From the NCBI RefSeq assembly GCF_003018235.1, contig NZ_CP027437.1: 64,000 nucleotides of DNA; one strand, written 5' to 3'. The stretch is from Escherichia coli. GTDB taxonomy: Bacteria > Pseudomonadota > Gammaproteobacteria > Enterobacterales > Enterobacteriaceae. A program made the translations under genes and the position numbers. The notes under the pieces were generated by a model. It was not told the DNA's origin and ran no database searches. It saw nothing but the letters and a program-made list of their open reading frames with translations. Shown here in pieces: positions 22,853 through 40,321 of the stretch (position 1 is the first letter of the stretch; every line of letters starts with the position of its first letter).

Positions 22853-22874
22853 AGTGTTGCCTTTTTGTTATCAA

Positions 22875-22903
22875 TAAAAAAGGCCCCCCGATTTGGGAGG
22901 CCT
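22875..22903 (-). terminator. pheA attenuator terminator
   Basis: On the minus strand AGGCCTCCCAAATCGGGGGGCCT hairpin followed by TTTTTT, between the pheL stop and pheA start. Confidence 0.6.
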
Positions 22904-22950
22904 TATTGTTCGTCTTCGCATTCTGTTTCACACGACGAAACGCCTCCCAT

Positions 22951-22998
22951 TCAGGGGAAGGTAAAAAAGAATGCGAAGAAAAACGGTGTGTGTTTCAT
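22951..22998 (-). CDS. pheL: pheA leader peptide
   Basis: Encodes MKHTPFFFAFFFTFP* (Phe-rich 15-aa leader). Confidence 0.9.
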   Translation of the reverse strand: MKHTPFFFAFFFTFP

Positions 22999-23163
22999 GT
23001 TTGTTTCCTTAAGTGACTTCAGTACAGTACCCGTACTGTTTTCACGCTGTCAACAAAAAACGCGCCCGAAGGTGCTTTAATGAGGAGTGCCGCTTCTTTA
23101 TGTCTGTGAATTATCAACAACTTACGGGGAAACATAACCGCAAGAAGCGACAAGAAATTACAA

Positions 23164-24168
23164 CTATATGGACAGATTATGGACGCTTTCAGCCAGTGGA
23201 TTAAAGCTTATAGCATCCTGTAAAAAATCCGGTGCAAAATGCGCATATGTCATTGTTTGCTGGATAGTTGAATGTCCAAGAATCCGTTGAAGTGTTACTA
23301 TATTTCCTCCATTCATCATAAAGTGTGTTGCAAACGTATGCCGCATAACATGAGTTGCCTGTCCTTTGGGCAGATCTGGTTTTACTTCCTTTAGTGCTCG
23401 TCGAAAGTTTGTGTAATTAACATTAAACAATGCACCAGATTGTTTTATCTTGATGAGCTTTATAACTTCTTCGGATATAGGTATGGCGCGGGGTTTATTG
23501 GTTTTTGTCTGATTAAACATAACTCTGTTTCCCACAATATTTTCTCCCCGTAGTTTTGTTGCCTCTCCCCACCTTGCTCCTGTCGAAAGACACAGAATCG
23601 CTATTCGTTTGTTATCTCCAGTAAGATGATTGAGCAAGCGATCAATCTCTTCGTTTGATAAAAACGACATATCTGATGGTACAATCCTCAACTTCCTCAG
23701 ACCATGTAGCGGATTTGCATGGTGGAATTCTTCAGCATTAATCAGCACTGAAAACATGGCTGAAAGTACGCAGAGATCCCTGTTTACCGTGTTGGGTGTC
23801 AGTCCTGCACTGAGTTTGTTTGCACGATAACTCAGAAGGAACTTTCTGGTTACACCGTTGGCTCTGGGATCTCCCATTTCTCTGATCACTTTATTCAGCC
23901 TTTGCAGGTATGTCTCACCATAAGGCTGATTTTGCCCGTCGAGCATCCACCACATTTCGGCAAGTTCGGAAAGATGGCGTTTGTCTGCGGGTTTTTCCAG
24001 CCATGGTTTGTTATGCATGTTCTGAAGAACATATTTTTCATAATCCTGCGCTTTCGACTTCAGGGTGAAAATTTTTCGAATCCGCTTCCCTTCCGCACCC
24101 TGAGGTCTGACATCAACCTGATAACGTCCGTCTTTGAGCTGCTTAATCGACATGATTAGCACCTCCAA
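23164..24168 (-). CDS. int: Tyrosine-recombinase integrase, P2-family-like
   Basis: C-terminal catalytic region ...ATHVMRHTFATHFMMNGGNIVTLQRILGHSTIQQTMTYAHFAP...; ILCLSTGARWGEA and TKTNKPR motifs as I recall in P2 Int; true start may be the Met at 24153. Confidence 0.9.
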   Translation of the reverse strand: MEVLIMSIKQLKDGRYQVDVRPQGAEGKRIRKIFTLKSKAQDYEKYVLQNMHNKPWLEKPADKRHLSELAEMWWMLDGQNQPYGETYLQRLNKVIREMGDPRANGVTRKFLLSYRANKLSAGLTPNTVNRDLCVLSAMFSVLINAEEFHHANPLHGLRKLRIVPSDMSFLSNEEIDRLLNHLTGDNKRIAILCLSTGARWGEATKLRGENIVGNRVMFNQTKTNKPRAIPISEEVIKLIKIKQSGALFNVNYTNFRRALKEVKPDLPKGQATHVMRHTFATHFMMNGGNIVTLQRILGHSTIQQTMTYAHFAPDFLQDAISFNPLAESVHNLSI

Positions 24169-24243: not shown

Positions 24244-24567
24244 TTATTGGTGTGATTTTGAGTTTGTTGTAGTTGAATCCTGAGCGGCCTCCGATTCTCC
24301 AGAGCCATCAAGAGAGAGAGCCGGGGCGATCTGCCCGGCCTGAGGGAAGGTTTTGCCGTGCAGGAGCCACATTGTGTATTTTTCGAACAGTGAGCACTGT
24401 AATACACGGAGGGCGATATCTGCCCGGGCAGGTTGATGTCCTGTTTCATAACTCTTAACAGAACCAAGAGCTATACCTGTTATCTCGCTAAACTTTTGCT
24501 GGGTTATTTTTTCAGCACGTCTGATCGCTCGTAGTTTTTGAGCAAAATCCATTGACAAGGTATTCAT
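24244..24567 (-). CDS. Immunity repressor, P2 C-like (HTH)
   Basis: HTH FSEITGIALGSVKSYETG; C-terminal KYTMWLLHGK..GQIAPAL resembles P2 C (KYTLWFMTN..GQIAPAL) from memory; same strand as int. Confidence 0.7.
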   Translation of the reverse strand: MNTLSMDFAQKLRAIRRAEKITQQKFSEITGIALGSVKSYETGHQPARADIALRVLQCSLFEKYTMWLLHGKTFPQAGQIAPALSLDGSGESEAAQDSTTTNSKSHQ

Positions 24568-24668
24568 ATAACGACTATCCTTCTTTTGGTTGTTGATTAA
24601 CGACGTTTGCAATAGCTGACTATAGTCGACAGTAGCCAGCAAACGCACCAACGATGGAGGATAACAAA
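24568..24668. promoter_or_regulatory. Divergent promoter/operator region between repressor and cox-like gene
   Basis: 100-bp intergenic region with perfect palindrome GACTATAGTC (24618-24627) and a GACTAT half-site at 24573-24578. Confidence 0.4.
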
Positions 24669-25127
24669 ATGCAGGAAACTATTGCAGAGGGGGGGATATT
24701 CAACGCTGGTGGGGATGACACGCAGTTACAGGAAAAGGAAGTCAGAAATAAATTATCACTGAGACTTGATGGACCTGTAGCGGATTTAGTTTTTCTGGAT
24801 AAAGGAGCAGCATACGTTGGGCTGACCAGGAAAGCGCTTGCAACAGCTTTACGTAGAGGCGAAATGCCTGGACATAAGAAAAGAAAAAATCCTGAAGATG
24901 AAACATCGCGTGGAGTGTGGATTTTTAACGTCAAGGCATGGAATGAACTTGCTGATATTTTGCCTGAAATTGAGCCACCAGAATGGCATCACTGGAAAGA
25001 TTACTGGTTATACAACCGAAACACTCGGAAATTTCAAAAGATTGATAAACAAGATTGTACACAGATTAATGGTAAACGTGTTTACAGGCCGCGTCAGAGC
25101 AGACTGGAAAAAGCACGTCAGTCATGA
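24669..25127 (+). CDS. Hypothetical DNA-binding protein in cox/apl position (possible excisionase or lytic-switch regulator)
   Basis: GGAGG SD 9 nt upstream; segment LVFLDKGAAYVGLTRKALATALRRGEMP resembles excisionase/AlpA-type HTH; divergent from repressor. Confidence 0.35.
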   Translation: MQETIAEGGIFNAGGDDTQLQEKEVRNKLSLRLDGPVADLVFLDKGAAYVGLTRKALATALRRGEMPGHKKRKNPEDETSRGVWIFNVKAWNELADILPEIEPPEWHHWKDYWLYNRNTRKFQKIDKQDCTQINGKRVYRPRQSRLEKARQS

Positions 25128-25485: not shown

Positions 25486-26281
25486 ACACAGGAAAGTTAT
25501 GGGCTTGTGTGATTCAGAAAGTGTGAGGTTACGTGCAAAATGGCCAGACATGTAAAAAAGAACTTGAATGCAGTGTCGGCATGGTGGTATTTTTCATCTG
25601 CTGCCACAGTGCTGGCAGTCGGGAATACCACCCCGTATGTGTCAACGGCGACATCAGACGCCGCAAGCGTCTTTTTTGTTGTCGTAACCTTATACGCCAT
25701 GAAGCTCCATTTTATGGTGCGGTGTTATCCATTAAGAGCCGTTGCAAGCGCCTCTACCGGAAGGGGCTGGATAACATCCACCACCATGTCAATGGTAGCT
25801 CAGGCGGGGCCGACTTCGGTCGGGCCGGTTTCCGTTGGCACCGGTAGTGGTATCCCCGTCTGGGCTATCGCCAGTGAGCATACCACCTCCTGCGATAGCA
25901 GTATGTTATGTCAACGGAGGCTGCCTGAATGGCTACAATCCCAACCCAAAAGCGCCCAAAATCCGCGCTCCCCCAGCTCAGCAGTGACTGTCGTCGCCGG
26001 ATACACCGTGTGCAGATGGTTACGCTCCATTATTACATTCAGTGTCTCGCTGATAATCCGTGTTCAGTTGATTTTTGTTTTCCGTACTTATTGTCTTACA
26101 TCCACGATGATATTAAGGCTATAGATAATGAGTTAATTTCTCTTGGCCTGTTTGAACAGGCGATGGGAAAGAAAAAACGACGATAGTTTTCATCGTTATT
26201 AATTAACGTTGTCAGGAAGTATTAAACACACCGCTCACGCGGCGGGAATCTTACATCTTAAATATCTGACGAGGTGGAAAC

Positions 26282-29497: not shown

Positions 29498-30284
29498 TGC
29501 CCTGAAAGCGATGGGTAAAGCCACGTCAGTGGAACTGGCTGCGCGTCTCCAGATCAGCCGTGAGGAAGTACTGAATGAACTCTGGGAATTGCGGCGCAGT
29601 GGTGTTGTGGATCAAAACTTACAGGTCTGGACACTGGCCAGCGATGGTGCGCAACGGGAACAAAAAACGCCTGCTGCGGTGTATCAGCGTGATAACAAGG
29701 AGGAGCGTAAATTACGTGAGGTCGTCAGTCGCCAGGAGCGAGCGCCACTGAATCGCAGTGATATTCTGTCCGCGTTTGCTCATTGTGAGGAAATGACCAC
29801 CGCGGAGATAGCAACAGCAGTGGGGCGCGCTGATAGTGTCAGGTCGTTGGTTTCCGCAATGGAAAAACTTTGTCGTACTGGTCTGGTAATCAAAATGGGG
29901 CAGGGTAAGGGGTGTAAGTGGAAACTGGTAAAAAAATCCGGTGAAAATTTACCAACAGTGCCAGAAACAGAGCCGGTAGCGCTGTCCGGTGGTAAATCTG
30001 AGTCTGCCGCTGTGGTGGTCGATTTGCCACAGCAGAAAACGCAGACCAAAACCAAACAAGAGACTGTGACGGACATTGTGCAGTCGCTGCCATCGTTTAC
30101 CGCAACGCGGTATGATGACCTGATTTTACCATCGCTGCATATGGCAAACCGCGAACTGCGTCGGGCGAAAAGTCATGTCCAGAAGTGGGAGCGAGTCTGC
30201 GCCGCGCTGCGGGAGCTGAACAAGCACCGGGATATTGTTCGACAGATTACTGATTCTTCCCGCCGGGTTGCATCGGAAAAGTGA
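29481..30284 (+). CDS. Tandem winged-helix-like protein (paralogs 2a/2b)
   Basis: Two internal copies of the same ~50-aa pattern (ATSVELAARLQISREEVLNELWELRRSGVV and MTTAEIATAVGRADSVRSLVSAMEKLCRTGLV); GGGAG SD. Confidence 0.5.
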   Translation: MENIVDALKAMGKATSVELAARLQISREEVLNELWELRRSGVVDQNLQVWTLASDGAQREQKTPAAVYQRDNKEERKLREVVSRQERAPLNRSDILSAFAHCEEMTTAEIATAVGRADSVRSLVSAMEKLCRTGLVIKMGQGKGCKWKLVKKSGENLPTVPETEPVALSGGKSESAAVVVDLPQQKTQTKTKQETVTDIVQSLPSFTATRYDDLILPSLHMANRELRRAKSHVQKWERVCAALRELNKHRDIVRQITDSSRRVASEK

Positions 30285-32149: not shown

Positions 32150-32401
32150 ATGTTCTCTCTGATTCAGCGTGGTCAGCGGTATGTTGATGCAGCTGGTTAT
32201 CCTGTGGAGATTTGTTTTTGTTCTGCTGAGAAAGTGGTGTATCGCCGCCAGGACAATCAGACCCGTTCTGCAAGTATTGTTGACTTTAATCAGAATTTTG
32301 AACGTCTGGATTATCACGAATATATACGGATTAAATCAGATATGGAGCAGACAGAACATCTGCGGAAATTAAGACGATTACACAAAAGAGGTGGGGAATA
32401 A
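32150..32401 (+). CDS. Hypothetical protein (83 aa)
   Basis: Internal ATG with GGGGG SD; MFSLIQRGQRYVDAAGYPVEICF... Confidence 0.35.
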   Translation: MFSLIQRGQRYVDAAGYPVEICFCSAEKVVYRRQDNQTRSASIVDFNQNFERLDYHEYIRIKSDMEQTEHLRKLRRLHKRGGE

Positions 32402-32894
32402 CCACGGATAAAGAGAACTAAATTTCGTCAGAATTAACAGGAAATAACTGGAACGAAAAATACACCGCTTACGCGGCGGGGTTTCTGCAACCTTAAAACA
32501 GGGTAAGAGAAATGGCAGAGATGATGAACAATAAACTCTTCATAACCAGTCTCTTTAAGTTGACTGGCCGGGAGTAACGACCAGTGGCAATACAAAAAAA
32601 CCGCTTGCCAGCGTTTGTCTGGTCGGGTTACATTTCCCGTGCACCTCATAAAACGGGTGCCGGGATTCTCAACCCGCAGAAGAACAGAGCGCATAACCGC
32701 GCCAGCGGTTTTTTTATGCGTGCCGTATCGTCACACCTTTTTCGCACACGAATTATGGCGGGGCGTACGGGGCCGACTTCGGTCGGGCCGGATCCTCTGT
32801 TCTCCGGTGTTGAGAACCCCGTACGTCTCGCCACCCCGAGATTCTCAACTCTGGATGGTGAGTTATGTCTATCACTGAACAGAGGTTACCCCTT

Positions 32895-33125
32895 ATGGCA
32901 AACCGTAAACAACAGCGCGCCCGCACTGAGCGTCGTCACATCCAGACCGAAATCAACCGCAGACTGTACCGGGCTATCACTGTCGCCAGAGTCATGTACT
33001 TCAATATGCTGTGTGATCAGGGATGCCAGATTGCACCTGATTACATTGCCTCCACGTTCAGTTACCTGGCAGACGATCTGCGGGATATGCAACGCCTGGT
33101 TAACGATCAGGCGCATAACCTGTAA
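32895..33125 (+). CDS. Hypothetical small basic protein immediately upstream of repA
   Basis: MANRKQQRARTERRHIQTEINRRLY...; alternative start at 32865. Confidence 0.35.
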   Translation: MANRKQQRARTERRHIQTEINRRLYRAITVARVMYFNMLCDQGCQIAPDYIASTFSYLADDLRDMQRLVNDQAHNL

Positions 33126-33203
33126 CGCACTTTTTCCTGAAATCATGAAACGGCACTCCGCTATCTGGCGGGGTGTCTGGCTGCCCGTTATCCGGGAGGA
33201 CAT

Positions 33204-35126
33204 ATGACCGTGTATTCAGCGGGAGGTCCGCGCATGCCTGAGCCGGAAGAAGAACAGGCATTCACTGAAGAGGTGAACAGCGCCTTTTCCGGGCTGCCTC
33301 GTTTTGTGTCTGTAAAGCTGGGGCGCAGGATCAGCAGCGCATGGCAGACAAAGGGTTTTGCCGGTGCACGGGAAAAATTTGCGCTGATGGTTCAGAAGGA
33401 TTTGCCGTTCATTACCGGGGTGAATAAACGTTATGCCATTAATCCGGATGAATTACCGGGGTGGCTGTTTGGTGGGCTGGCATCTGATCAGGCATACGGT
33501 GCGGTTCATTCCATGACCTGGCGATTTAATGCCATGGTGGATGGTGACGACGGGGATGCGCATTTACTGGCTCAGGATCTGTCCGTGTTTCTTATTGCTG
33601 AAATGCAGCACCTGAGTGTTCTTCTTGCGGATGAAGATGCGGATGCGGCGGCAGATGCCATTTATGCCATGGTTGCCGGGCTTGTTGAGCATTTCCGGAT
33701 GGAGCCACCGGACTGGAAGCGTTTTATTGGCAGAAAGCTGACACTGGAGCAACTGACTGTTGCCATCAGCCGGATGCTGAGTGTTCGCTGGTGGCAGGGA
33801 AAACTCAGGGCATTCTCCCGTCGCTGGCGTGAACATCTGCTTATAGCTATGGGTGTCGTTCGTCGGCAGTCTTCACCGCACTGCAGTTATGAATGGGTGC
33901 AGAGGTGGCTGGCGGGGCGTAAGCACGGTCGAAGGCTGATGGCGGAAACGGACGTTGAGGATGAAGAAACAGGAGAAAGATTTTCACTTCTCGATTTGGT
34001 TGACAGCAGCATTTCAGATGCGGAGAAACGCCGCGCAGAGCTGATGACCAGGGTTAAGGGGCTGGAAGATTTAGCCCGTTTTGAAGGTGTGGCGCAGGAG
34101 CAGGGGTATATCGGGCTTTTTTTCACGATGACCGCGCCATCAAAATATCATGCCTGGCTGGAGACAGGATATCGCAATCGTCGTTATAACGGCGCAAGCC
34201 CGAAAGACACACAAAATTATTTCTCCGGACTCTGGCGTCAGATCAGTGCAACGCTGAGGCGCAGGGGGATCGGGATTTTTGGATTAAGAAGTGCCGAACC
34301 GCATCATGACGGAACGCCGCACTGGCATGGTGTTCTCTATGTGCATCAGGAGCATGCTGCCGCCTTACAGGACATTCTTGAGTATTACGCCAACCGCGAT
34401 GATGACGCGGGAAAAACGCCCATCCGCAAAGCAGGAAGAAAATCCCACCTGGAAATAAAACCGGTTCTTGATGATCTGGGGAGTGCCTCTGCCTATATCG
34501 CCAAGCATATTGGAATGAATCTTGACGGTTGTGCGCCAGGCGGAATGAATCATGAAACGGGCCATACACTGGTGGTCACTGCCCGCCACGCCTCGGCGTG
34601 GGCGTCATTATGGGGGATCAAGCAGTTTCAGTTTATAGGCAGCACACCGGTAAGTGTATGGCGTGAGCTGCGTCGCTTTAACAATCAGGCTCATGCTGAC
34701 CGGATAAGCCCGGCGCTGGGTGAGTTACACCGTGCAGCCAGTGAGGGTGACTGGAAAACCTATACCAGGCTGCAGGGTGGACCGTTTGTGGCACGAAGAG
34801 ATCTGGTCCTTCGCACATGGTATCAGCGTTCGGAGGAGCCGGATGAGTGTGGGCTACACACCAGTGCGATCAAAGGTGTTTATATGCCGGGGCGTGATAC
34901 GCCACCGGTAGTGACGCGTTCACGTAACTGGAGGATCACCCGGAACGTTACAACAGGCGCTCTCAATGTTAACCGGGGGTCTGCTTTAACGCCCTGGACT
35001 TGTGTCAATAACTGCATTTCGGGCAGAAAACGACCAGATGGTCATCCTCCGGATCCAGGTATAAGGATCCCTGTTCAACTGGAACTGAACTTCGGGGAAG
35101 AGAATAAAGGGAAAAGTGAGCAGTAA
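33204..35126 (+). CDS. Rolling-circle replication initiation endonuclease (HUH family; P2 gpA-like)
   Basis: GGGAGGA SD; HUH-type motif GTPHWHGVLYV; 640 aa in the position of gene A relative to int-C-cox. Confidence 0.75.
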   Translation: MTVYSAGGPRMPEPEEEQAFTEEVNSAFSGLPRFVSVKLGRRISSAWQTKGFAGAREKFALMVQKDLPFITGVNKRYAINPDELPGWLFGGLASDQAYGAVHSMTWRFNAMVDGDDGDAHLLAQDLSVFLIAEMQHLSVLLADEDADAAADAIYAMVAGLVEHFRMEPPDWKRFIGRKLTLEQLTVAISRMLSVRWWQGKLRAFSRRWREHLLIAMGVVRRQSSPHCSYEWVQRWLAGRKHGRRLMAETDVEDEETGERFSLLDLVDSSISDAEKRRAELMTRVKGLEDLARFEGVAQEQGYIGLFFTMTAPSKYHAWLETGYRNRRYNGASPKDTQNYFSGLWRQISATLRRRGIGIFGLRSAEPHHDGTPHWHGVLYVHQEHAAALQDILEYYANRDDDAGKTPIRKAGRKSHLEIKPVLDDLGSASAYIAKHIGMNLDGCAPGGMNHETGHTLVVTARHASAWASLWGIKQFQFIGSTPVSVWRELRRFNNQAHADRISPALGELHRAASEGDWKTYTRLQGGPFVARRDLVLRTWYQRSEEPDECGLHTSAIKGVYMPGRDTPPVVTRSRNWRITRNVTTGALNVNRGSALTPWTCVNNCISGRKRPDGHPPDPGIRIPVQLELNFGEENKGKSEQ

Positions 35127-39457: not shown

Positions 39458-39534
39458 GCGCCGTTAGCTCAGCTGGACAGAGCAATTGCCTTCTAAGCAA
39501 TCGGTCACTGGTTCGAATCCAGTATGGCGCACCA
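39458..39534 (+). tRNA. tRNA-Arg (anticodon UCU)
   Basis: Manual cloverleaf: acceptor GCGCCGT/ATGGCGC, D-arm GCTC..GAGC, anticodon loop CTTCTAA, T-arm ACTGG-TTCGAAT-CCAGT, CCA end. Confidence 0.85.
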
Positions 39535-39535
39535 T

Positions 39536-39610
39536 GCGGTCATCGTATAATGGCTATTACCTCGGCCTTCCAGGCTGATGATGCGGGTTCGATTCCAGCT
39601 GGCCGCTCCA
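39536..39610 (+). tRNA. tRNA-Gly (anticodon UCC)
   Basis: Manual cloverleaf: acceptor GCGGTCA/TGGCCGC, anticodon loop CTTCCAG, T-loop TTCGATT, CCA end; close to glyT tRNA as I recall it. Confidence 0.8.
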
Positions 39611-39768: not shown

Positions 39769-40321
39769 TATTTTTAGTATTTAGCCAGAGTGGCCCAAAC
39801 AGAAAATAAAGTTACTGTGAAACAGGGGGGCCTAATAAAAATAATCACCACTAAATTCGGGGCTTTAAAAATGCTAAGAACATCACATTTCATTATGCCG
39901 GGTACTGGAGAATAACATGATGTTTTGTTAAAAATGATTTTGCATGGTGAATCCCCCTGTGCGGCGGGGCATAATGACAGATGTTTGGTTGCGTATTGTA
40001 TAGGCAAGTTGCGGATTCTGTCTGGTCATTGCAGAATTCACCGGGAGGCACCCGGCACCATGCAGATAATTGTTTTGTGGATGATAATACCAGCCCCTCT
40101 CCGGAGGGGCTTTCTTATGGGCGAAAAAAAGCCCGGGGAGCCGGGCAATAGCATGAGATATACGTTTTTATAGACGTACAGATTTTAATCAGAATTTATG
40201 GGGCTGCGCAACTGCGTGGCCTTTTTTGTTTTGTGGGCTAAGGTTTTCCCCTTTGATTCGCCATGTGGCTGAACCTGTAGCCCGCCACTGTTCAGACGCA
40301 ATCCCGGCAAGGGGAGGAATA

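Follow-up and report, generated by a model that had tools for sequence, protein, structure and literature searches.

The window analyzed here is a 64,000-nt segment of an Escherichia coli chromosome (NZ_CP027437.1) that carries a prophage insertion adjoining pheL, and the locus in question is an 802-bp gap within that prophage, between a DUF4222 open reading frame (ORF) ending at 32401 and gpA, a P2 A-type replication endonuclease gene starting at 33204. What does this interval do? The original prediction held that positions 32402-33203 form a structured leader controlling the replication gene, named repA there, by attenuation or antitermination, or else contain a replication origin; the elements that it listed are all present at or near the positions where it had placed them. 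We conclude, with a probability that we put at roughly 85%, that the region is an RNA-based immunity and regulation cassette of the type represented by immI c4 of P1 and P7, CI/seqA of P4, and isrK of Gifsy-1. The evidence consists of the observed family membership and structure of its RNAs, four covarying intermolecular helices, the overlap of one target site with a Shine-Dalgarno (SD) sequence, and synteny with gpA. Because a promoter-like site, an intrinsic terminator, and structured RNA are combined with gpA synteny, the region can be regarded as a regulatory leader of the downstream operon, and it very likely governs the replication operon. To this extent the original prediction stands, but the mechanism is that of an antisense RNA. 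All elements of the leader described below, those of a second cassette in the same prophage, and gpA lie on the plus strand; the cassette inside 32402-33203 is referred to as module 2 and the second one (25600-26186) as module 1.

Two RNA families in the leader of gpA

The entire window was scanned with Rfam at gathering thresholds. In the leader, the C4 antisense RNA family (RF01695) matched positions 32751-32838 over the full length of the model (1-87 of 87) with 77.0 bits against a gathering score of 45 and an E value of 2.5e-13; this match is the multi-stem element noticed previously. The C4/CI-type RNA consists of a 17-bp closing stem around two hairpins, and when the segment was folded alone, the minimum free energy (MFE) structure, at -49.8 kcal/mol, was the Rfam consensus structure (z = -4.2 relative to shuffled sequences). 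Two recognition segments are located in its unpaired parts, namely, b' (CCUCUGUUC, 32794-32802) in the loop of hairpin 2 and a' (GUUGAGAA, 32809-32816) in the single-stranded joint. An invariant CCACCC after the closing stem is the only sequence hint of processing.

The second family, isrK (RF01394), matched positions 32641-32715, and C4 begins 36 nt past the end of this match, which again covers the whole model (1-77 of 77; 65.4 bits against a gathering score of 50). The corresponding IsrK/seqA-type leader RNA (32641-32717) comprises two 5' hairpins, a single-stranded stretch, and an intrinsic terminator, and its fold has a z-score of -2.95. The terminator (32696-32715; stem ACCGC/GCGGT at 32696-32709, loop GCCA, T7 at 32709-32715) was also recovered by a terminator scan and is the same hairpin with seven T residues that had been described as resembling an intrinsic terminator. 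Overlapping the isrK match, the c4-a1b1 model of Rfam, a curated motif for the a1 and b1 targets of C4, gave a sub-threshold match at 32628-32680 (17.8 bits). A promoter scan placed a sigma-70-type promoter-like site for the IsrK/C4 transcript at 32594-32634, with an A7 tract in the position of an UP element (32594-32600), a -35 hexamer TTGCCA (32605-32610), an 18-nt spacer, and a -10 hexamer TACATT (32629-32634). The start predicted from this site falls at about 32641, on the first position of the isrK match. All homologous leaders keep the two hexamers and the A tract, and the spacer differs between gpA-type leaders and those of the type found in phage P88. The IsrK-type RNA thus has its own predicted promoter and a Rho-independent terminator, and it lies directly 5' of a C4-like RNA.

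Exact complements of a' (8 nt) and b' (9 nt) are present both upstream, within IsrK, and downstream of C4. The upstream copy consists of a1 (TTCTCAAC, 32666-32673), in the loop of IsrK hairpin 2, and b1 (AGAACAGAG, 32681-32689); the downstream copy consists of a2 (TTCTCAAC, 32842-32849) and b2 (GAACAGAGG, 32877-32885), the latter including an SD sequence, AGAGG, located 9 nt 5' of the ATG at 32895 that opens a 76-aa ORF. Searching the window for the bipartite pattern TTCTCAAC-N(5-35)-GAACAGAG gave three occurrences, namely, a1b1, the complement of C4, and a2b2, where 0 were expected. In the 260-nt read-through RNA (32641-32900), the MFE structure pairs a1b1 with a'b' in cis. Judged from these complementarities, the predicted direct target of C4 is the ribosome-binding site of the small ORF.

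A third C4 target was considered in the 5' end of gpA (33238-33275), where a repeat search returned the candidates AGAACAGG at 33251 and TCACTGAAGAGG at 33262 and where b1/b2-like sequences (GAAGAACAGG, TCACTGAAGAGG) are found. This reading was dropped: in the related locus L002, which has a different b' (GUCGUGCGUAG), the segment differs without becoming complementary to that b', and the bipartite search of the window yielded no further site. The b1/b2-like sequences in gpA are probably due to chance.

Covariation between C4 and both of its targets

To obtain a comparative set, viral contigs were searched with the 76-aa protein, which gave 80 loci and 39 distinct 280-nt leaders that are 64 to 100% identical to the window. 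Base pairs were counted on the alignment of the 39 leaders with the structure encoded as pseudoknots, and the pairing was controlled by sliding the partners by 1 to 3 columns and by 500 column shuffles. The internal helices of C4 are 100% paired, with 5 of 27 pairs changed on both sides and with conserved G-U pairs. The helices between C4 and the downstream target are paired at 100% for a':a2 (4/7 pairs compensatory) and 94.6% for b':b2 (7/11), and those between C4 and the IsrK copy are paired at 99.6% for a1:a' (3/7) and 99.1% for b1:b' (7/9). Pairing falls to about 40-42% in the slid controls, and none of the 500 shuffles matched the observed covariation. RNAduplex calculations on the entire recognition hairpins, which leave hairpin opening unpenalised, gave moderate z-scores; in-register covariation is the stronger test.

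Variation within the leader is essentially confined to the recognition segments. Six types of a' and 14 types of b' occur in 19 combinations among the 39 leaders, and therefore the a and b sites reassort independently, with both target copies changing along. This is the same principle as in the heteroimmunity of P1 and P7, where a few bases in a' and b' set the specificity and are accompanied by matching changes in the target (PMC12197685).

The covariation also bears on the proposal of classical attenuation or protein antitermination, according to which a leader peptide, or a phage antiterminator acting on the hairpins, would regulate the terminator at 32696-32715. Variation in the leader coincides exactly with the positions at which C4 and its two targets covary, which indicates RNA-RNA recognition rather than sensing by a protein or a ribosome. 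In favor of the proposal, early-operon transcription toward gpA does meet a good intrinsic terminator, and for Gifsy-1 read-through at the homologous terminator has been documented, with the speculation that a CI-like RNA might modulate it (PMC4825925). A conserved leader peptide was not found, since conservation does not extend to the ATG at 32865 and a 21-codon ORF (32513-32578) is located 5' of the promoter. The prophage does encode a Q-type antiterminator, but its gene is located downstream of gpA. We therefore regard regulation of this kind as unlikely; what the covariation shows instead is a C4/CI-type antisense RNA with two target copies.

The small ORF and a predicted path to gpA

The small basic ORF of the original prediction (32895-33125) encodes 76 aa with an Arg/Lys-rich N terminus and matches phrog_3688 (E = 5.5e-32); RefSeq names the product "derepression protein," and we refer to it as epsilon-like. 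It is conserved as a coding sequence, with 31 protein variants, and the ATG at 32895 and the N-terminal codons are kept in 39/39 distinct leaders, whereas the in-frame ATG at 32865 is not conserved. The ORF matches Pfam PF25738 (Derepression, the P4 epsilon family) weakly (E = 7e-4, 19.8 bits), and NCBIfam returned no match for the small ORFs, gpA, or Cox. Because a direct BLASTP comparison of the 76-aa ORF with P4 epsilon was not significant, the link to epsilon was drawn via Pfam and the paralogous 85-aa ORF of module 1, with which the 76-aa ORF aligns (E = 6e-6). A C-terminal motif, (F/L)SY(L/I)x(D/E)D, is common to the 76-aa ORF, the module 1 ORF, and P4 epsilon. These comparisons suggest that the 76-aa ORF is a weak member of the P4 epsilon family. 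Proteins of that family presumably bind and inactivate a P2-type C repressor; for the 76-aa ORF such an anti-repressor activity is a prediction by analogy. The prophage carries genes for a C-type helix-turn-helix (HTH) repressor and for Cox.

Across the epsilon-like proteins, comparison of the window with L003-L081 shows conserved ends (MANRKQxRA..RRHIQTEINRRL and FSYLADDLR) and a divergent middle, and the middle of the gpA-type loci (window, L001, L002) differs from that of the P88-type loci. Different repressor partners might account for the divergent middle.

In its first ~100 nt, the ORF is rich in C and poor in G, unlike the flanking genes, with 19-22 C compared to 12-14 G per 60 nt over 32870-32990 and a negative GC skew, and this part may constitute a rut-like stretch. 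The ORF is separated from gpA by 78 nt. This spacer is ~95% conserved in L002, compared to 78% for the leader, and contains an 8-bp hairpin, CACTCCGC-TATCTG-GCGGGGTG (33154-33175), without a U tract. The promoter scan, which relies on a consensus and may miss a promoter in a 78-nt spacer, returned no promoter-like site for the interval from the ORF to gpA. Given the overlap of b2 with the SD sequence, the C-rich and G-poor composition of 32870-32990, and the lack of a promoter-like site before gpA, we infer that the downstream genes are repressed.

The proposed mechanism would operate as follows. The sigma-70-type promoter at 32594-32634 would fire, with transcripts starting at about 32641, and most of these would end at the terminator (32696-32715), yielding an IsrK/seqA-type small RNA (sRNA) that bears a1 and b1. 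Read-through transcripts would contain C4 (32751-32838); if P1 and P4 are a guide, this RNA may be excised in stable form, and it would present b' in the hairpin loop and a' in the single-stranded joint. Pairing of a' and b' with a2 and b2 just downstream would mask the SD sequence of the 76-aa ORF and prevent its translation, and the untranslated C-rich RNA would be open to Rho, so that transcription would seldom reach gpA, 78 nt further on. In this scheme gpA would be the distal gene of the controlled unit, and the effect of C4 on gpA would be indirect, via polarity. The IsrK-type RNA, which carries the same two sites, might titrate C4, as does the anti-antisense activator of Gifsy-1, or act as an upstream co-target, as does seqA of P4.

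Several points weigh against this interpretation of the cassette. The promoter, the efficiency of termination, the processing of C4, and Rho-dependent polarity on gpA are predictions. On the direction of the IsrK effect, the analogues disagree: the net effect of IsrK is activation in Gifsy-1, whereas P4 seqA assists repression (PMC4825925 for Gifsy-1). The gpA gene has its own strong SD sequence (GGGAGG), and the consensus scan could have overlooked a promoter in the spacer. The match of the 76-aa ORF to the epsilon family is weak (E = 7e-4), and, as mentioned above, BLASTP gave no significant direct alignment to P4 epsilon. Finally, in one related viral contig (L055, 210-489), a1 and b1 of IsrK are of another specificity type than the C4 and a2/b2 of the same contig. 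L055 is apparently a recombinant with a mismatched upstream target copy, and therefore the upstream copy is not strictly required to match.

gpA, synteny, and the position of the origin

The gene downstream of the leader (33204-35126) encodes a gpA-family replication endonuclease (P2 A, HUH type), as indicated by its matches to phrog_91 (E = 1.8e-173) and PF05840 (Phage_GPA; E = 8e-77) and by 34% identity to P2 A over 468 aa. A gpA-family gene lies 3' of the small ORF, either directly or after one small gene, in 77/80 viral loci, and the same synteny was observed in four further annotated loci (one phage and three from E. coli), including P88 (L083), SCU-171, and STEC409 (L086).

In the P2 record, the nick site is annotated at 29892 within gene A, and the motif GGAnTnnTGTCAATAACTG starts exactly there. 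This motif occurs once in the window, with 0 occurrences expected, at 34996-35014 (GGACTTGTGTCAATAACTG), which is inside the 3' part of gpA, at a codon position equivalent to that in P2; it is also present in L001 and L002. At the sequence level, the window therefore contains what characterizes a P2 gpA-type replicon, namely, a Phage_GPA domain and a nick-site motif within the gene itself.

These findings run counter to the proposal that the inverted repeats and hairpins of the leader serve the neighboring HUH initiator as its replication origin or as a nick-site hairpin. The leader is rich in inverted repeats, and the origins of many HUH initiators adjoin the rep gene; however, the stems of this leader belong to two curated RNA families and show conserved G-U pairs and compensatory changes that are typical of RNA and not of DNA pairing. 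Repeat and composition analysis detected neither iterons nor an AT-rich block in the leader. Moreover, the same leader precedes P88-type gpA genes that lack the nick motif, and in P4, which also carries both RNAs, replication relies on a primase and on an ori/crr located at a distance. An origin in the leader is accordingly very improbable. Because the leader lacks iterons and an AT-rich block, its stems are of the RNA type with G-U pairs, and the P2-type nick motif sits in gpA, uniquely in the window, the origin of the replicon is most probably inside gpA at 34996-35014.

The possibility that the region is protein coding, through a 207-aa ORF (32584-33207), minus-strand ORFs as in P88, or a long "ash family protein" as in STEC409, is just as remote: both strands contain open reading frames, ORFs of this kind are annotated across homologous sequence in database records, and the nested kil/eta frames of P4 overlap immunity RNAs and are truly translated (PMC10111431), but in these leaders the variation is centered on the paired recognition segments and tracks base pairing rather than codon position, the long product has no PHROG or NCBIfam evidence here, and the sole frame with conserved amino acids starts at 32895. 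In the P88 record, a minus-strand "hypothetical protein" is annotated over IsrK and C4 (L083, 5033-5221), and in that of STEC409, a 205-aa "ash family protein" covers them (L086, 3493-4110); in both, the RNAs are unannotated.

A second cassette and the 19-nt motif

Module 1, the second cassette of the same prophage (25600-26186), consists of an IsrK-like RNA, a P4-like C4 RNA, and an 85-aa epsilon-like ORF. The IsrK-like RNA (25600-25677) scores 49.0 bits with the isrK model, just below the gathering score of 50, and the C4 RNA (25788-25875) scores 74.2 bits with the Rfam C4 model. The ORF (25929-26186) matches PF25738 with an E value of 4e-8 and P4 epsilon by BLASTP with an E value of 6e-6. 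The arrangement of target sites parallels that of module 2, with a1 (25625-25631) and b1 (25639-25648) upstream, b' (CGGUUUCCGUUGGCA, 25826-25840) and a' (25847-25853) in C4, and a2 (25880-25886) and b2 (25909-25923) downstream, where b2 covers an SD sequence, GGAGG. The a and b sequences are module 1's own (GUGGUAU for a, CGGUUUCCGUUGGCA for b'), and its bipartite target pattern occurs twice, compared to 0.01 expected. The predicted duplex energies are -29 to -35 kcal/mol for cognate pairs and -17 to -25 kcal/mol for cross pairs; since the cognate duplexes are predicted to be stronger, the two modules appear to be orthogonal.

The specificity types and the presence of two cassettes suggest a broader, tentative scenario, which we hold to be somewhat less probable than its negation. 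The P88-type leaders might form a combinatorial two-site RNA lock, in which a and b are reassorted by recombination with their targets co-exchanged, giving rise to many mutually heteroimmune groups of E. coli P2-like prophages; each lock would gate an epsilon-like anti-repressor and a rolling-circle initiator, and a single prophage could carry two orthogonal locks, one P4-type and one P88-type. If so, RNA cross talk could allow a prophage with two locks to sense co-resident P2-like phages and P4-like satellites or to resist them.

The 19-nt motif of the original prediction (ACACCGCTTACGCGGCGGG) was located at 32462-32480, where it forms the hairpin CCGC-TTAC-GCGG followed by CGGG. It has a second exact copy at 26228-26246, which makes two in the window compared to 0.04 expected. 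The motif lies upstream of the IsrK promoter, outside the conserved RNA module, and beyond the window the exact motif was found only in the near-identical L001; none of the remaining loci that were fetched, the 80 P88-like viral loci among them, contains it. When the search was relaxed to cover the hairpin family, nothing beyond the two exact copies was returned. The hairpin in the ORF-gpA spacer (33154-33175) resembles the motif loosely, and the repeat search links it to 32475-32487. As a side observation, a hairpin of the form CAC(T)CCGC-loop-GCGG(C/G)GGG recurs in spacers of the early operon (26228-26246, 32462-32480, and, more loosely, 33154-33175), each copy ~28-36 nt before a start codon and without a U tract on the plus strand. 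On the minus strand, the copies at 26228 and 32462 would form hairpins with GNRA loops, and the terminator scan marked the 32462 copy as resembling a terminator.

Prophage context and distribution

The prophage (23164-64000) is a hybrid with a P2-like left part and a lambdoid remainder. The left part begins with a P2-type integrase gene (23164-24168) and an HTH C-type repressor gene (24244-24651), both on the minus strand, and the Cox gene (24654-25127); exonuclease and RecE-type genes follow, and then the P2 A-type replication endonuclease gene. The lambdoid part includes DUF968, the Q antiterminator, a methyltransferase, tRNAs (a cluster at 39458-39607), lysis genes, terminase, and lambda-like tail genes, and an STnc100 sRNA is located at 39912-40122. 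Elsewhere in the window, the Rfam scan identified ssrA (4756-5118) and the pheL leader (22874-22999).

The 802-bp region recurs with 99.6% identity in a prophage of E. coli SCU-111 (L001). Leaders of the related type were detected in 1173 of 5426 complete E. coli genomes, whereas at least 80% of the 802-bp region itself is present in just 3/5426, 2 of them at ≥98% identity. A P1/P4-type RNA immunity cassette would thus be a standard gatekeeper before gpA in a large set of E. coli prophages of the P2-like and hybrid kinds, in about a fifth of the complete genomes. For the locus itself, an unannotated 800-bp leader becomes a defined three-part RNA switch with predictions at the level of single bases (8 + 9 specificity nucleotides and a blocked SD sequence), and database annotations that draw protein ORFs over the RNAs are corrected. 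The mechanism class has been known since the 1990s, and the general significance is therefore modest.

Comparison with known systems

The cassette is an ordinary member of a known family of RNA switches, in which a C4/CI RNA is combined with an IsrK/seqA partner. A catalogue from 2010 includes the c4 and c4-a1b1 motifs (PMC2864571), relatives of CI and seqA in satellites are reportedly detected by the Rfam profiles for C4 and isrK (PMC10111431), and IsrK has been described as a structural homologue of P4 seqA, with the stable RNA downstream of it, STnc1160, being compared to CI (PMC4825925).

In P4, the same Rfam models match CI (C4, 8420-8507) and the seqA leader (isrK, 8615-8692). The order of elements is shared with the locus described here, comprising a promoter, an upstream target with a terminator, the antisense RNA, a downstream target, an epsilon-family gene, and a replication gene; the P4 leader that contains CI together with seqA and seqC belongs to the P_LE operon (kil/eta, epsilon, orf151, alpha). 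CI silences the replication genes of P4 (PMC4825925; PMC10111431), and the same logic is proposed, by analogy, for the prophage. The systems differ in the replication gene, an alpha primase-helicase in P4 and a P2 A-type nicking endonuclease here, and in the position of the target: the eta/kil frames of P4 overlap the RNAs and epsilon is located further down, whereas the epsilon-like ORF of module 2 follows C4 directly and its SD sequence is part of the b2 target. In addition, P4 is a satellite, unlike the full-size hybrid prophage with its P2-type int/C/cox and lambdoid Q, lysis, and tail genes. In sequence, module 2 resembles P4 only distantly, and module 1 is the P4-like one.

The immI loci of P1 and P7 have the same succession of a1 b1, c4 with a' and b', and a2 b2 over the ribosome-binding site of the first small ORF, and c4 blocks translation at the ribosome-binding site of the ant operon (PMC12197685). 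In both systems the product of the first gene is expected to counteract a repressor, and Rfam places C4 and c4-a1b1 in one clan, the latter model giving the weak sub-threshold match mentioned above. For P1 c4, processing by RNase P and Rho-dependent termination have reportedly been demonstrated. The downstream genes differ, being icd/ant in P1 and P7 and the epsilon-like ORF and gpA here, as does the upstream target copy, which is packaged here as a terminated IsrK-type sRNA.

The isrK-orf45(STnc1160)-anrP locus of Gifsy-1 in Salmonella likewise has an IsrK sRNA with an intrinsic terminator, with partial read-through there and predicted read-through here. In the read-through RNA of Gifsy-1, the middle of IsrK pairs with the C4-like segment ("structure A"), as shown genetically there and predicted by the MFE structure here, an anti-repressor-like gene lies downstream, and homology to P4 seqA/CI was noted (PMC4825925). 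Hfq binding and trans-activation of the read-through mRNA by IsrK are known only for Gifsy-1 (PMC4825925). In contrast to the prophage, Gifsy-1 controls AnrP, a member of another protein family, whose translation is coupled to that of orf45, an ORF overlapping the C4-like RNA, and the output is the AntQ antiterminator and not a replication gene.

The closest relative of the leader is that of P88 (Xuanwuvirus, P2-like), with 82% identity over the promoter, IsrK, C4, and the start of the ORF. Both Rfam models match, and IsrK, C4, a "derepression protein," and a gpA-family replication protein follow in the same order. P88 differs by an extra small gene before gpA, by its 940-aa gpA, which is only 30% identical, and by its a'/b' specificity.

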